NCBI GenBank assembly: GCA_965140785.1
Contig: OZ223481.1
Coordinates: 32,001-96,000, forward strand
Direction of reading: 5' to 3'
Source of the DNA: an uncultured Ruficoccus sp.
Lineage (GTDB): Bacteria; Verrucomicrobiota; Verrucomicrobiia; Opitutales; Cerasicoccaceae
Length of the DNA: 64,000 bases
Part shown: positions 40,452 to 49,670 of the stretch, piece after piece
Numbering within the stretch: position 1 is the first letter of the stretch
Layout of the letters: each line of letters begins with the position of its first letter
The notes under the pieces: model-generated
The model's input: only the letters and a program-made list of their open reading frames with translations
What the model was told of the DNA's origin: nothing
Databases searched by the model: none
Position numbers and translations under genes: made by a program

Positions 40452-40463
<12 letters not shown>

Positions 40464-40476
40464 ATTTCCTATAACA
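40452..40476 (+). other. Left attachment site (core plus attP arm)
   Basis: TAGATTTCCTATAACA (40461-40476) is the exact reverse complement of 49160-49175. Confidence 0.88.
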
Positions 40477-40800
40477 AAAAGGGATTGGGGAATCCTTATC
40501 TCTTTTACGGCAACGCTCAAGACCCAGCGACTGTCGGTCAACTACGTCGGGAACAAGCGTACGTGTCGCCAAACACTTATCATTGAGCTACATAGTCAAG
40601 GACTCAATGACCGTCAAATAGCCGATCACCTGAACGGATTGGATATTACCTCACCTACAGGGAAAAGGTACTATCCTGAGCTTGTATTCGCTGTTCGTAA
40701 AAAGCTAAAGGCACGCCAGCAGAGACTTGAGGAATCAAAGCTATCCATTGGGAAAATGGACATTTGTAAATTAATTGTAAAAAATAAAGAAATGCGATAA
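40453..40800 (+). other. Start-less 115-codon open frame with recombinase-type HTH motif; putative C-terminal segment completed across attP
   Basis: RWSRFPITKRDWGILISFTATLKTQRLSVNYVGNKRTCRQTLIIELHSQGLNDRQIADHLNGLDITSPTGKRYYPELVFAVRKKLKARQQRLEES...KEMR*; no ATG/GTG/TTG before the HTH; preceded by TGA (40450) in the integrated state. Confidence 0.65.
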
Positions 40801-40862
40801 ATTTTCAAAAAAACCCAAAATCCGGAATCGAGGCCTATAAATACTAGTAAAAGGGCCCAATA

Positions 40863-41336
40863 ATGACTTCGGATAGTATACGCAATGCAACCAGATTATT
40901 CCTAAATAGTAGGATAGAAGACTATTCAAATTGCATAGCTCTCACCTTAACGATGAAACAATATTCAGGGGGCTTTAAATTAGACGAAGTGCGTGCCAGC
41001 AAGGACTTTAGGCACTTCATGAATATACTAAATAAGAAGACATTTGGCAAGGCTTTTCAACGTTTCGGGAAACGAATATCAGTCGTACCAGTGATGGAAA
41101 ACTCAGAAAACGAACGTCTGCACTTTCATGCCTTACTTCAATGCCCTGATAAATACTCTTGGACTGCGGGCCAGGCCATTTTTGCGCTAAAAGCACAGTC
41201 TTTATGGAAAAAGACACACTTTGGATATGACCAAACGTCCAGTCGGTTGGCGGCCGACAAAGGCTGGACGGGTTACATAACCAAACTCAAAGGACAAGCC
41301 GATCAGATAGACTGGGAAAATTTCCACTGGAATTGA
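40863..41336 (+). CDS. Small HUH (Y1) endonuclease, rolling-circle Rep-like
   Basis: Motif I ALTLT, motif II LHFHALL (HUH), motif III GYITK. Confidence 0.75.
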   Translation: MTSDSIRNATRLFLNSRIEDYSNCIALTLTMKQYSGGFKLDEVRASKDFRHFMNILNKKTFGKAFQRFGKRISVVPVMENSENERLHFHALLQCPDKYSWTAGQAIFALKAQSLWKKTHFGYDQTSSRLAADKGWTGYITKLKGQADQIDWENFHWN

Positions 41337-41554
41337 CGGGTATAAACCCCTTTTCCATTTCCGAGTAGCATATCAAGGAGCGAAATAGCCCCTTGATACT
41401 TTGTTATATACAGAAACAACAAATTCCTAGAGTATATAATATCCTATATGTCAAAGAATAAAGTTATTCAGACAGTACACAGAGTTCTCCTAAGATAATT
41501 CTGATTCATATCTACAAAGGGATGCCGCAAGGCATCAGGCATCTTGATGCCTTC

Positions 41555-41791
41555 TCAAGGTTCCACTACTGGATCCAAGTCCTCCAGTTCCTTGATTATC
41601 TCTGACGGGAAACAGTCAAGAGCCCGAGCAATCAAGAAAATCGTAGTCAGCGTTGGCTGAAATTTACCGTTCTCGATTTCAGACAGGAAACTTCGGTCTA
41701 TCCCTGCCCGTTCGCACAGGCTATCCTGCGAAAGCTTCAACTGACTCCTTCTGCGAGCGATTACACGGCCAAATGCATGCTTAATATCCAA
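41555..41791 (-). CDS. XRE-family HTH transcriptional regulator
   Basis: LSQDSLCERAGIDRSFLSEIENGKFQPTLTTIFLIARAL. Confidence 0.9.
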   Translation of the reverse strand: MDIKHAFGRVIARRRSQLKLSQDSLCERAGIDRSFLSEIENGKFQPTLTTIFLIARALDCFPSEIIKELEDLDPVVEP

Positions 41792-46773: not shown

Positions 46774-46930
46774 TCTTATCAAAAACCTCTCGTGATCCTT
46801 GATTATAGAATATAAATTCCATAACCAGTTACATAACCCATTGGCCACCATCCACTTATTTTAAGCCTTTTTATTTTACGCCCAGCACTGATTATATTAT
46901 ACTAATATTATCATAAAAAATAATCAGTAG

Positions 46931-47530
46931 ATGGCCCTTGGTAAGCAATCAAAGACACTTTCGAGCAAGCAGATCGATGCGATAAGTACCTACCTGCGGA
47001 ACCGCAGAAATGGGATACGAAACAATGCAATCTTCCTTCTCTCGGCCAAAGCCGGACTCCGTGCCAAAGAGATAGCCAATTTAAGATGGTCAATGCTCGT
47101 AGACGCTGATGGCCGCCTAACCCATACCATCAGCCTCACCGATAGCGCAGCCAAAGGTAGCTCTGGACGGACTATCCCCATGAATAAGACCGTGTATGCT
47201 GCCCTAGATGAGCTACTCCACATCGAACAGCCGATAGATGGCTTCACGATACAGACTTCATACGTCGTACGGTCTGAACGTTCGGACAGAACAAGCCCGC
47301 AGGTCATCGTCAATATGTTCCAACGCTGGTATCGAGAGCTTGGCTTCATTGGCTGTTCCTCTCATTCTGGGAGACGAACCTTTATCACCAACGTTGCCCG
47401 AAAAATAAGCCTAGTTGGGGGCTCTATACGTGATGTACAGGCCATCGCTGGGCATAAGCACCTCCAAACCACCCAACGTTACATAGAATGCGACTCTGAG
47501 TCTCAAAGAAAGGTAGTAGACCTTGTCTGA
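46931..47530 (+). CDS. Small tyrosine recombinase (catalytic domain only)
   Basis: GLRAKEI (R), AKG (K), SHSGRR (HxxR), AGH (H), TQRY (Y). Confidence 0.9.
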   Translation: MALGKQSKTLSSKQIDAISTYLRNRRNGIRNNAIFLLSAKAGLRAKEIANLRWSMLVDADGRLTHTISLTDSAAKGSSGRTIPMNKTVYAALDELLHIEQPIDGFTIQTSYVVRSERSDRTSPQVIVNMFQRWYRELGFIGCSSHSGRRTFITNVARKISLVGGSIRDVQAIAGHKHLQTTQRYIECDSESQRKVVDLV

Positions 47531-49157
47531 AATACTCCACATCTACACTCGGGTCAGTACCCAAGCTCAAAAGGAAGACGGAACCTCTCTCGACTCGCAG
47601 AAAGAGCAAGGAATCAAAAAGGCAAAAGGGCTGGGGTTTGAATATCGTATTTGGAATGAAGGCGGGCGATCAAGTAGCCATGATGACTTGAGCAACCGGC
47701 CAATCCTAGCATCTCTTCTGGATCACGTTGAAGCCAAGGGAGTAAAGCACCTTTGGGTTTACAACACCGACAGGCTCTCACGGAACGAGAACACCTGGAG
47801 CATGATACGCCTAAGCTTGGTCAAGAACGCAGTCACTCTCTACACGAACTCCGGCCTCTACCAGCTATCAAATGAAAGCGATAAATTAACCCTCGGGTTC
47901 CTTTCGCTAATAAGTGCCTATGAAAATACACTTAGAACAGAAAGAACAAGAACAGGCAAAGTCCAGAGGATCAAAGAAGGCTACTGGATGGGCGGCCCCC
48001 CTCCATATGGGTACAAGCTCATAAGCAAGAAGCTAGAAATCGACCCAGATGAAGCTAAATGGGTGAGATTCATCTTCGAGCAGTTCAGCAAGGGGCAGAC
48101 CGTCAGATGGATACGAAATAAGCTTCTTGAAAACAAGGTGATGACACGGCGGAAAAAGCCTATCTGGAGCCTTGGGTCCATAGAAAAATTGCTAACCAAT
48201 ACGCATTACGGCGGAAGCTACACCTACAAAGACAATAGAGACGATAATGTACACACGAGCGTCTGCCCTAGCCTACTGCCTGCCACGCTGATTATTGAGG
48301 CACAGAAAGAGAAGAAGCGGCGGTCAAAATTCAGGGCAAAAGAAAGCAACCAGAAACATTTCTACCTCCTGCGAGGCTTACTTCGGTGCGATCATTGCGG
48401 GGCACACTTCTCCGCTAGACGGTACGCAGTCCAAAAGCGCTCTAGCTACTATTGCCCCAGAAAGGAAAGAAATTACGCCAATGCCCCAGAGCGATGCGAT
48501 AACAGTAGATACCTGAAAATCGAAGAAACCGATGCCCTCATCGTAAGCACAGTAAAGGAAGTCTTGGCCAACTCGGGCCTATTCAAGCAGGAGATACGAG
48601 ATCATTACCTACAGCAGAATCAAGAGCAGCTACCCAGCAAGGACGATAGACGAAAAATCAAAGCCCGGATTAGGACACTTACCAAAGACATCAATGATAT
48701 CCGGTCCAAAATAACCATACTGGAGGCAGATCATCTACTTGAGAAGACAAGCAACACTCGCCTCAGCTTCATGAAAGTCATATCCGAGATCCAACGCCGG
48801 ATGCTGGTTGCCCAAGCGGAAAAGGAAAAGCTCGAAGAGACTTTGTATAATTTTGACCACCAAGAGCAGTTAAGTGATTGGTTTACAAAATATTCAGAAA
48901 GACTCAATGAGTTGGATGACATGACCGAGAAAGAATGCCAAAACTTTCTTAAAGGCGTTATCGAGTATATTTCAGTGCGCACGATCGATAAGAGGACACA
49001 CCAACTTAAAATCAAATTCCACTTACCGTACGTTAACGGTTATTTAAATCCCAATCAGTCCAACGAAGCAAACAAAGGTCCAGAGGCATCAACTGTAAAA
49101 ACACTGACCGTTGAGACTAAAAAAAAGCCCACAAACAAAACGCTTCAGCCGAAATAA
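47523..49157 (+). CDS. Large serine recombinase (integrase)
   Basis: YTRVST catalytic Ser, DRLSR, GGPPPYGY, recombinase domain, zinc ribbon CDHCG..YYC..C, coiled coil; TTG start overlaps the tyrosine recombinase stop. Confidence 0.95.
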   Translation: MSEILHIYTRVSTQAQKEDGTSLDSQKEQGIKKAKGLGFEYRIWNEGGRSSSHDDLSNRPILASLLDHVEAKGVKHLWVYNTDRLSRNENTWSMIRLSLVKNAVTLYTNSGLYQLSNESDKLTLGFLSLISAYENTLRTERTRTGKVQRIKEGYWMGGPPPYGYKLISKKLEIDPDEAKWVRFIFEQFSKGQTVRWIRNKLLENKVMTRRKKPIWSLGSIEKLLTNTHYGGSYTYKDNRDDNVHTSVCPSLLPATLIIEAQKEKKRRSKFRAKESNQKHFYLLRGLLRCDHCGAHFSARRYAVQKRSSYYCPRKERNYANAPERCDNSRYLKIEETDALIVSTVKEVLANSGLFKQEIRDHYLQQNQEQLPSKDDRRKIKARIRTLTKDINDIRSKITILEADHLLEKTSNTRLSFMKVISEIQRRMLVAQAEKEKLEETLYNFDHQEQLSDWFTKYSERLNELDDMTEKECQNFLKGVIEYISVRTIDKRTHQLKIKFHLPYVNGYLNPNQSNEANKGPEASTVKTLTVETKKKPTNKTLQPK

Positions 49158-49159
49158 GC

Positions 49160-49196
49160 TGTTATAGGAAATCTATATTACCACGGTGGAGTAGAT
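49160..49196 (+). other. Right attachment site (attP arm plus core)
   Basis: TGTTATAGGAAATCTA-TATTACC-ACGGTGGAGTAGAT. Confidence 0.88.
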
Positions 49197-49670
49197 GTGA
49201 TATTTAAGAGTACTGTGGACGTACTCATTCCGGCCTTGGCGTTTGCTATCCCCGCCATCATCTTTTTTCTGTATCTGGCGTCGATCTACCAGTGCGCCCA
49301 ACATAGGCAGGGGTACTTGGCGGCGGGCATAGCTGGAGTTGTGCTCATTGGGGCGATCTACGGAACCTACAAGCTATCCTGGACCGCTGCCGAGCTGACG
49401 ACCAAAACCAAATTCATGGCGAATGCCCGACGCAACCTATACCTGGGCTTTTACCACCTTCAACAAGATATGGAGGCTGGGAAAACGGGACTGGCTCAGG
49501 CAAAAATCAACTACTTGGTGGCGAAATGGGATGGGGTACAATACTTTAACGAAGACGGCGGCAAGTCCCTGAATAAGCTGACTGAAGCTCTCATGAGCAC
49601 TCCTCCCAAGGAATTTATAAACCAAGCGACCGAGACTGAAATCCCTGAAAGTAAAGACAACACGCCGTAG
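49197..49670 (+). CDS. Hypothetical membrane protein
   Basis: Two TM helices; GTG start with a GGAG ribosome-binding site supplied by the att core. Confidence 0.6.
   Translation: MIFKSTVDVLIPALAFAIPAIIFFLYLASIYQCAQHRQGYLAAGIAGVVLIGAIYGTYKLSWTAAELTTKTKFMANARRNLYLGFYHLQQDMEAGKTGLAQAKINYLVAKWDGVQYFNEDGGKSLNKLTEALMSTPPKEFINQATETEIPESKDNTP

Follow-up and report, generated by a model that had tools for sequence, protein, structure and literature searches.

A glmS-integrated island of an uncultured Ruficoccus with a probable -1 frameshift that would extend its serine integrase across attP on the excised circle

The element considered here is a mobile island at the 3' end of the glmS gene of an uncultured Ruficoccus sp. 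(Verrucomicrobiota; Opitutales; Cerasicoccaceae), and in particular two of its reading frames: the gene of its large serine recombinase (LSR), which ends at the right attachment site, and a start-less frame for a helix-turn-helix (HTH) domain, which begins at the left one. The window, i.e. the entire stretch of DNA that was analysed, comprises 64,000 nucleotides (positions 32,001 to 96,000 of contig OZ223481.1, assembly GCA_965140785.1), and its own numbering is used for the coordinates below. The integration target glmS (38613-40463, + strand) codes for a 616-residue protein with SIS and GATase domains, and its 3' end reads GTG ACG GTG GAG TAG, with the last codon and the stop being supplied by the island. 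The island, located at the glmS stop, spans 8.7 kb (40464-49196) and has a low guanine plus cytosine (GC) content, which drops sharply at the end of glmS, the flanks being at 0.58-0.67 and most of the island at 0.34-0.51. It is bounded by the 14-nt direct repeat ACGGTGGAGTAGAT (40452-40465 and 49183-49196) and carries a perfect 16-nt inverted repeat, with TAGATTTCCTATAACA at 40461-40476 and TGTTATAGGAAATCTA at 49160-49175. Accordingly delimited, attL (40452-40476) consists of the core overlapping the left arm of the inverted repeat, and attR (49160-49196) of the right arm followed by the second copy of the core.

Comparison of attL/attR pairs with each other and with empty sites of another genus suggests that the crossover probably takes place at the GT dinucleotide at 40455-40456. 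The predicted attP displays the 16-nt perfect inverted repeat around a 16-nt centre, a layout shared by the natural attP contigs described below. For the related island of genome G136, the empty glmS sites read GT(T/C)GA in all five congeners having one, and the crossover was hence placed at the preceding GT; a GA crossover would give TGA at the core codon, the GT crossover leaves the frame open, and the resulting predicted attP, CACCGTGGAATAG, is a string identical to the natural attP centres. The sequence downstream of the island is not shared by four congeners, and no empty attB was therefore recovered for the genus of the window. In kind, the island is an integrative element that targets glmS.

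The LSR gene (47523-49157, + strand) specifies a 0-frame product of 544 residues with the domain complement of an LSR, namely Resolvase (PF00239, E 2e-19), Recombinase (PF07508, E 5e-12) and Zn_ribbon_recom (PF13408, E 3e-10), and its catalytic R10-V11-S12 triplet is invariant across 10 relatives. The gene's tail reads ACT AAA AAA AAG CCC, with eight A residues at 49119-49126, and contains in the LSR 0 frame the shift-prone heptamer A_AAA_AAG (49121-49127, + strand), nine codons ahead of the stop. The heptamer is conserved in G001 and G003, two genomes of the same genus. The -1 frame is bounded by TAA 49118-49120, opens one codon before the heptamer and remains open through attR until TAA 49205-49207, its translation between these two stops being KKAHKQNASAEISCYRKSILPRWSRCDI. 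The part of it that would be read after a shift (49127-49207, + strand) covers 19 codons to the core, followed in the integrated state by seven codons and the stop. An earlier reading of this DNA from its letters alone, henceforth the sequence-only reading, had described A_AAA_AAG as a strong bacterial -1 motif, and a review (PMC5009743) calls both A_AAA_AAG and G_GGA_AAG highly shift-prone in Escherichia coli. The same reading had allowed that the A8 run might in reality be A9, miscounted during assembly. Such an assembly slip can be set aside, since A8 is seen in three independent assemblies of the genus and the run contigs covering it show no indel. No terminator-like site was detected on the + strand from the LSR stop to attR, or between the glmS stop and the start-less frame.

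The start-less frame, P0001 (40453-40800, + strand), comprises 115 codons ending in TAA and is closed upstream by TGA 40450-40452, and its earliest ATG, GTG or TTG is a TTG at 40639, within the HTH. Its layout includes an att-encoded linker (approximately residues 1-13), a strand, a three-helix HTH and a further strand. The core reads CGG TGG AGT AGA in a common register at 49184 and 40453, yielding RWS(R/K) at both attR and attL. Because this register matches at the two ends, the product sizes given in the sequence-only reading, i.e. 544 residues without a shift, 561 with a shift in the integrated state and 669 with a shift on the circle, are arithmetically correct; all its coordinates for the left-end frame, the heptamer and the -1 frame were likewise reproduced.

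This arrangement, taken together with the comparative evidence presented below, suggests that programmed -1 frameshifting probably yields a long integrase isoform from the circle only. The LSR gene ends a few codons past the heptamer, where a fraction of the ribosomes would shift. In the integrated state the shifted ribosomes would merely add a short junk tail, giving the 561-residue form. Excision would join the right end of the island to its left end in attP, and on the resulting circle the -1 frame would cross the att site, which would then act as a linker, and enter the start-less open reading frame (ORF) for a second, truncated recombinase-type HTH. The minor long isoform of about 669 residues would therefore be possible only on the circle. 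Two of the parts expected of a -1 cassette are present, with a 0-frame heptamer at an ORF1/ORF2 overlap and a conserved coding -1 ORF downstream of it, the latter only in attP; as in other att-split ORFs, the core lies inside a putatively translated frame whose products differ between the two states.

A six-frame search recovered the P0001 frame in 3 of 101 related genomes, a count that includes G000, and in 7 of 401 genomes at the order level. A profile search recovered it in 5 of 401 genomes at the phylum level, the phylum-wide sample providing no additional family members. The related islands are those of G001 and G003, with 91-97% nucleotide identity to the window, and those of G166, G364 and G136, which belong to other genera and have LSRs with 47%, 47% and 37% identity to that of the window, respectively. 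All five are situated at the glmS stop and share the order HTH frame, Rep, cargo, tyrosine-recombinase-like gene and LSR, and the glmS gene found upstream of every integrated relative is 63-93% identical. Their LSR tails read ACT AAA AAA AAG (G001, G003), GCT AAA AAA AAG CAT TAA (G166), GCT AAA AAA AAC ACC (G364) and AAC AAA AAA AAA GTG (G136), and all of them leave the -1 frame unbroken across attR, in the same register as the left-end frame has at attL.

Junctions of the attP form were found directly in metagenomes. A scan with a 5-sequence alignment as query returned 40 loci, with glmS directly upstream of the HTH frame in 18 (attL form) and an LSR directly upstream in 6 (attP form); L034 and a second L047 junction were added to the attP set by eye. 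The natural attP contigs are L034, L036, L039, L046, L049 and L055, to which can be added L047, a circular contig whose 125-nt terminal overlap closes it to a circle of 8557 bp. The LSR tails read GCA AAA AAG TAG in L036, GAA AAA AAG in L034, ACT AAA AAA AAG in L055, ATA AAA AAA AAG TAA in L047, and GTG GGA AAG, i.e. the heptamer G_GGA_AAG, in L039, L046 and L049. At these natural junctions the -1 frame opens 2-7 codons ahead of the heptamer and crosses a glmS-like core into the HTH ORF, forming continuous -1 ORFs of 125-144 residues or extending to the contig end. The L047 circle has two paralogues of the HTH family: the start-less one lies behind the LSR, and the second (905-1195), with a GTG start, adjoins an XRE-like gene and a degenerate core-like sequence.

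A HMMER search against 1.84 billion representative proteins gave 132 matches at E<=1e-3, of which 11 were at E<=1e-10, and most had been called at lengths of approximately 65-150 residues. Four of the called proteins (P0006, P0010, P0034 and P0038) run from the att arm or the LSR-tail motif into the HTH. Many others, including P0004, P0005, P0007, P0008, P0021, P0023 and P0036, were called from an ATG internal to glmS (the +1 frame of GAT-GTN-GAT), 12 codons before the RW(S/N)(K/R)F motif; such calls add 12 spurious residues and mask the fact that the island frame has no start of its own. The long matches (P0003, P0126, P0060 and others) were considered as candidate LSR fusions and rejected as unrelated multi-repeat HTH proteins. 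Six proteins of this kind (P0003, P0014, P0015, P0018, P0043 and P0126) are made of 4-10 tandem HTH units of about 45 residues (LFTDQQLIDLHAEGLNDREIA) and match P0001 through the helix-turn-helix motif, and one of the tandem-HTH proteins has an N-terminal zinc-ribbon or TFIIB-like part. Word-index protein searches with P0001 (the "near" and "longer" length settings) and P0010 ("longer") gave no match, which constitutes weak evidence only. A metagenome scan with P0001 alone as query also gave none, a genome contig scan with the LSR recovered only distant LSRs, and viral-contig scans produced a single chance match in a tail-fibre gene.

The sequence-only reading had proposed testing whether homologous glmS islands retain the register and a slippery run in the LSR tail, and 9 of 10 lineages do so. 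Of 13 family loci, 12 (11 detected by computation and L034 read by eye) have an X_XXY_YYZ heptamer in frame at a distance of 0-15 codons from the LSR stop, with the -1 ORF opening 2-12 codons upstream of it. No such heptamer was found in the last 40 codons of seven unrelated LSRs, an eighth control locus having run off its contig. The heptamer itself differs between lineages, occurring as A_AAA_AAG, A_AAA_AAC, A_AAA_AAA or G_GGA_AAG, which favours ribosomal frameshifting over an accident of an A-run. The spacer between heptamer and core measures 56, 56, 53, 79, 32, 62, 44, 74 and 58 nt in nine lineages (range 32-79). Modulo 3 it equals 2 in the seven lineages whose HTH frame reads xGG TGG, and 1 in L024 and L047, which use the other HTH register. 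The pattern is one of compensatory covariation rather than inheritance of a fixed spacer. Furthermore, none of the 10 junctions tested has a stop in the -1 frame of the linker from heptamer to core; in the +1 frame 2 of the 10 are free of stops, and in the window the -1 frame is the only one without a stop. The shuffle probabilities for this range from 0.05 to 0.67 per junction and amount to approximately 1e-6 in sum, a value that slightly overstates the case because L039 and L046 belong to one clade.

The same tails bear on whether the two frames might instead be fused at the level of nucleic acids, either by slippage of RNA polymerase on A8/A9 or by length variation of the A8/A9 tract in DNA (phase variation). 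Runs of A8-A9 are indeed found in six lineages, and the called proteins P0010 and P0034 read the LSR-tail motif into the HTH in one frame, as far as protein calls alone can tell. However, G_GGA_AAG takes the place of the A-run in the clade of L039, L046 and L049, and in L036 and L034 the run is no longer than A6-A7, all of these being too short for polymerase slippage. The A8 run is moreover identical in the three assemblies and free of indels in the run contigs, and what is conserved is the 0-frame position of the heptamer, a property relevant to ribosomes alone. A nucleic-acid-level origin of the fusion thus appears quite unlikely.

Codon changes between the window and G001 amount to 18 synonymous and 9 non-synonymous in the HTH frame versus 3:24 and 5:24 in the other frames, with three of the four changes in HTH codons 1-24 being synonymous. 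Between L039 and L049 the corresponding counts are 31:39 versus 3:63 and 9:56, and the synonymous changes begin directly past the core. These substitution patterns indicate that the HTH frame is under purifying selection. The family comprises 38 members conserved over their full length at 22 to 41% identity. An AlphaFold2 model of P0001 from the 38-row alignment has a predicted local distance difference test (pLDDT) score of 88, with strands at residues 14-24 and 95-106 and helices at 34-48, 53-62 and 75-93. A duplicated recombinase domain in decay, aligned with the LSR -1 frame by historical accident, is an alternative that the substitution patterns already largely refute. Such a relic could explain the missing start codon and the sub-threshold score of P0001 with the Pfam Recombinase profile (E 0.14), but it would show neither a strong synonymous bias confined to the HTH frame, nor full-length conservation across so divergent a family, nor a confidently predicted fold, and we regard it as extremely improbable.

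The sequence-only reading had likened the frame to the LSR's own recombinase domain. Of the 38 family members, 34 match PF07508 weakly, at E<=1 (best 4.5e-6), and P0001 itself matches profile positions 9-45 of 102 with 12.9 bits, under the curated cut-off of 21.1 bits. A Foldseek search of the PDB with the P0001 model returned nothing at E<=0.001, and its local matches include the serine integrase 9y66_A (probability 0.87). VIA-align gave Z scores of 8.1 for a small-terminase HTH, 7.4 for the LSR recombinase domain of 9dxd_A (165-253), 5.7 for Bxb1 and 5.5 for Tn3 resolvase, the LSR scores falling within the range of many generic HTH matches. Neighbours of P0001 in the language-model Atlas are proteins of 97-110 residues, 38-50% of which carry PF07508. 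The domain is taken to act like the first half of the LSR Recombinase domain and probably derives from it, as a diverged and truncated version set between two long strands.

Whether the left-end frame has a start of its own is the point on which the family is divided. The interval from core to conserved strand is devoid of ATG, GTG and TTG in the window, G001, L023, L024, L025, L039, L046, the post-LSR ORF of L047 and L059-61, i.e. in at least seven lineages, and in further lineages the sole start candidates are Val codons (GTG) within the conserved strand. Conversely, a start codon follows the core in G003 (ATG, codon 21), L022 (TTG, codon 14), and L034-37, L055, L050 and L052 (ATG). The start-less state, which the sequence-only reading had proposed to check in homologues, thus applies to a part of the family, and in several lineages the HTH may be made independently, because an ATG or TTG is available just past the core. 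This raises the question of whether the frame is simply an ordinary stand-alone gene, coding for a regulator or a protein akin to a recombination directionality factor (RDF), next to which the slippery LSR tail would be incidental. Its start would be canonical in some lineages and near-cognate elsewhere, for example one of two ATC codons of the window (40492 and 40498), preceded by AAGGGA/GGGGA. Such a gene would be in keeping with the lineages just mentioned, with the 132 called proteins of mostly about 90-120 residues among the representatives, and with the small proteins surrounding the frame in the Atlas. It would nevertheless have to dispense with a canonical start in at least seven lineages despite purifying selection, and many of the called starts are either the glmS-internal ATG or Val/Leu codons in the conserved strand. 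It also leaves unexplained the conservation of the heptamer, the stop-free -1 linkers and the covariation of spacer and register. A stand-alone gene is therefore an unlikely explanation of the locus as a whole.

A variant with the opposite dependence on integration would have the frame expressed in the integrated state from the ATG inside the 3' end of glmS, read in the +1 frame of GAT GTN GAT. The many calls beginning 12 codons before RW(S/N)(K/R)F correspond to exactly this reading of the glmS end. However, a stop closes the frame at the core in the window, L022, L025, L031 and L059-61, high-GC hosts have ACG in place of the ATG, and L024 and L047 use the other register; these differences mean that the glmS-internal start tracks host codon usage and is not a conserved feature, and expression from it appears very improbable.

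In addition to the start codons found past the core in part of the family, several observations weigh against a frameshifted, circle-only isoform. In L051 the run is A9C and lies far from the stop, the -1 frame has a TGA, and the HTH is truncated. None of the codon changes in the linker is synonymous (0 of 4 between the window and G001, 0 of 3 between L039 and L049), indicating no protein-level constraint there; an unconstrained sequence is compatible with a flexible linker and adds no support. In the integrated state the -1 frame after attR continues for 545 codons in L022 (from 13923) and 500 codons in L023 (from 10361), in frame into the next host gene, which from its sequence motifs we take to resemble anthranilate synthase component I, so the shifted frame is not selected to end quickly. 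RNA folding revealed no stimulatory structure conserved across lineages at the canonical distance of 5-9 nt. The attP inverted repeat of the window does fold strongly, and only in the joined form (z -6.7 when joined vs -1.3 when integrated), with the hairpin starting about 33 nt past the heptamer, and comparable hairpins exist in L039 (z -5.7) and L055 (z -4.7). However, they begin anywhere from 20 to 46 nt downstream and the other lineages are unremarkable. As its position varies or the hairpin is missing among lineages, no role as a frameshift stimulator is claimed for it. L047 has a 6-bp hairpin at +1 of the heptamer, and in L036, L046 and L047 the 0-frame stop comes right after the heptamer. 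No long LSR-HTH fusion was found among the called proteins, although gene callers would not join the two frames in any case. Logan contigs of three runs, with no RNA run among those listed, contained no circle junction, empty-site joint or A-run indel; contigs of this kind are unable to reveal rare forms, and the result carries no information on excision or expression.

If the long isoform is made, our best guess is that its additional recombinase-domain-like unit alters the integrase on the circle, by affecting attP x attB proficiency, by blocking re-integration or by controlling the downstream Rep gene; the behaviour of the recombinase would then be tied to the topological state of the element. 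For the LSR and the HTH together, complex prediction gave a score of 0.48 (best control 0.00), with runs sharing at least 75% of the contacts, a partner pLDDT of at least 67 and no interface reported. The assigned verdict is weak support, scores of 0.60 or less being wrong more often than right in the calibration, and docking of the HTH on the integrase can serve as a lead only. Directionality in serine integrases is commonly attributed to a dedicated directionality factor, and many LSRs lack a known one. A bolder and rather doubtful extension of the proposal is that the topology of the integrase gene is sensed by the integrase itself. Recombination would build and dismantle the 3' extension of the LSR gene, the -1 shift would set its dose, and the long form (Int-long) would be restricted to the circle and the short form (Int-short) to the chromosome. 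Directionality or post-excision fate would then be set by this pair of isoforms, in place of a dedicated RDF, throughout a widespread, mostly marine family of glmS islands.

Parts of this scheme have counterparts in known systems. The closest in logic is the integration-dependent immunity of mycobacteriophage BPs and its relatives, in which attP is inside the repressor gene (PMC4557955). The island is comparable in that attP lies within an ORF, such that integrated and extrachromosomal forms differ in their C-termini, but its split ORF would extend the serine integrase itself, would need a -1 shift, and would assign the long form to the circle. The BPs-type system reportedly has a tyrosine integrase, and its split repressor gene is said to require no recoding. 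Frameshifting by -1 at A_AAA_AAG underlies the OrfA-OrfB transframe transposase of IS3/IS911, the closest known case of recoding, and the gamma/tau pair of dnaX. The IS3/IS911 case is similar in having the heptamer at the end of ORF1, a short overlap, and a transframe product in which a domain is added to an enzyme of DNA recombination. However, the IS3 ORFs are contiguous in every state and their fusion is the active enzyme, whereas ORF2 of the island is 8.7 kb away until recombination occurs.

Additions to the C-terminus can reprogram the directionality of LSRs, as exemplified by the engineered serine integrase-RDF fusions described in PMC5737554 and PMC12286644, and the latter also speculates that the RDF site may be blocked by C-terminal extensions occurring in nature. 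The engineered fusions are artificial and are made constitutively, unlike the extension proposed here, whose HTH, given its weak complex score, is at most a candidate RDF. Recoding is likewise known to gate one stage of an integrative element's life cycle: FseA of ICEMlSymR7A, the excision activator, arises by a +1 frameshift fusing msi172 and msi171, according to PMC5009743. That shift differs in direction, its product is a transcription activator and not a recombinase, and the att junction is irrelevant to it. Neither "integrase" nor "recombinase" is mentioned in the 300,000 characters of that review that were searched, and our literature search found no description of an LSR frameshift or of an LSR ORF extended across attP. 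The novelty would accordingly reside in the combination of an att-split ORF with -1 frameshifting, applied to the integrase itself. If true, this would be a natural case of a recombination product rewriting the integrase gene, with the circle form encoding the longer enzyme, and a new way for a mobile element to tell the chromosomal from the excised state. It would also place the recombinases of integrative elements among the genes that use -1 frameshifting, give annotators a reason to check start-less frames at island ends across att junctions, and offer potential compact, state-dependent integrase variants for genome engineering.

Of the remaining genes of the island, the one adjoining the HTH frame is Rep-like, of the rolling-circle type (40863-41336, + strand; 157 residues; PF23343, E 4e-8); it is kept in this position in relatives and is 37-48% identical in L022, L023 and L024. 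Replication of the island is probably by rolling circle. Between the HTH and Rep frames (40801-40862; approximately 3370-3400 in L022 and 3360-3385 in L023) lies a conserved ATAAATA-centred motif, palindromic in L022 (GGATTATAAATATCC), which is a candidate for the nick site of Rep or the origin, or alternatively for a promoter. Farther along there is an XRE-type HTH regulator on the opposite strand (41555-41791, - strand; 78 residues; HTH_3, E 2e-13), and the island also holds two small ORFs. An IS3-family element (42257-43560, + strand) is bordered by imperfect terminal inverted repeats of 39 nt; the G001 island lacks it, and it has a host-like GC content and multi-copy depth in the run contigs. 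Its orfA (42317-42583) and orfB (42577-43557, in the -1 frame) overlap at an A8 run, GAA AAA AAA TGG TAA, a classical -1 arrangement that we count in favour of frameshifting at the LSR tail.

The cargo of the island is a TIR-STAND NTPase (44086-46773, + strand; 895 residues) with TIR_2 and nSTAND domains, probably a defence gene, and the corresponding slot in the G001 island (L008, 4050-6865) is occupied by unrelated DNA, the island thus behaving as a small carrier of exchangeable defence cargo. Immediately ahead of the LSR gene, and overlapping its start by 8 nt, is a tyrosine-recombinase-like gene (46931-47530, + strand) whose 199-residue product consists of the catalytic domain only (Phage_integrase, E 2e-23). 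It is 63-64% identical in L022 and L023, above the 47% of the LSR, and candidate roles for it are those of an accessory protein, a directionality factor, or a resolvase for the rolling-circle replicon. In L047 its position is taken by a small serine recombinase.

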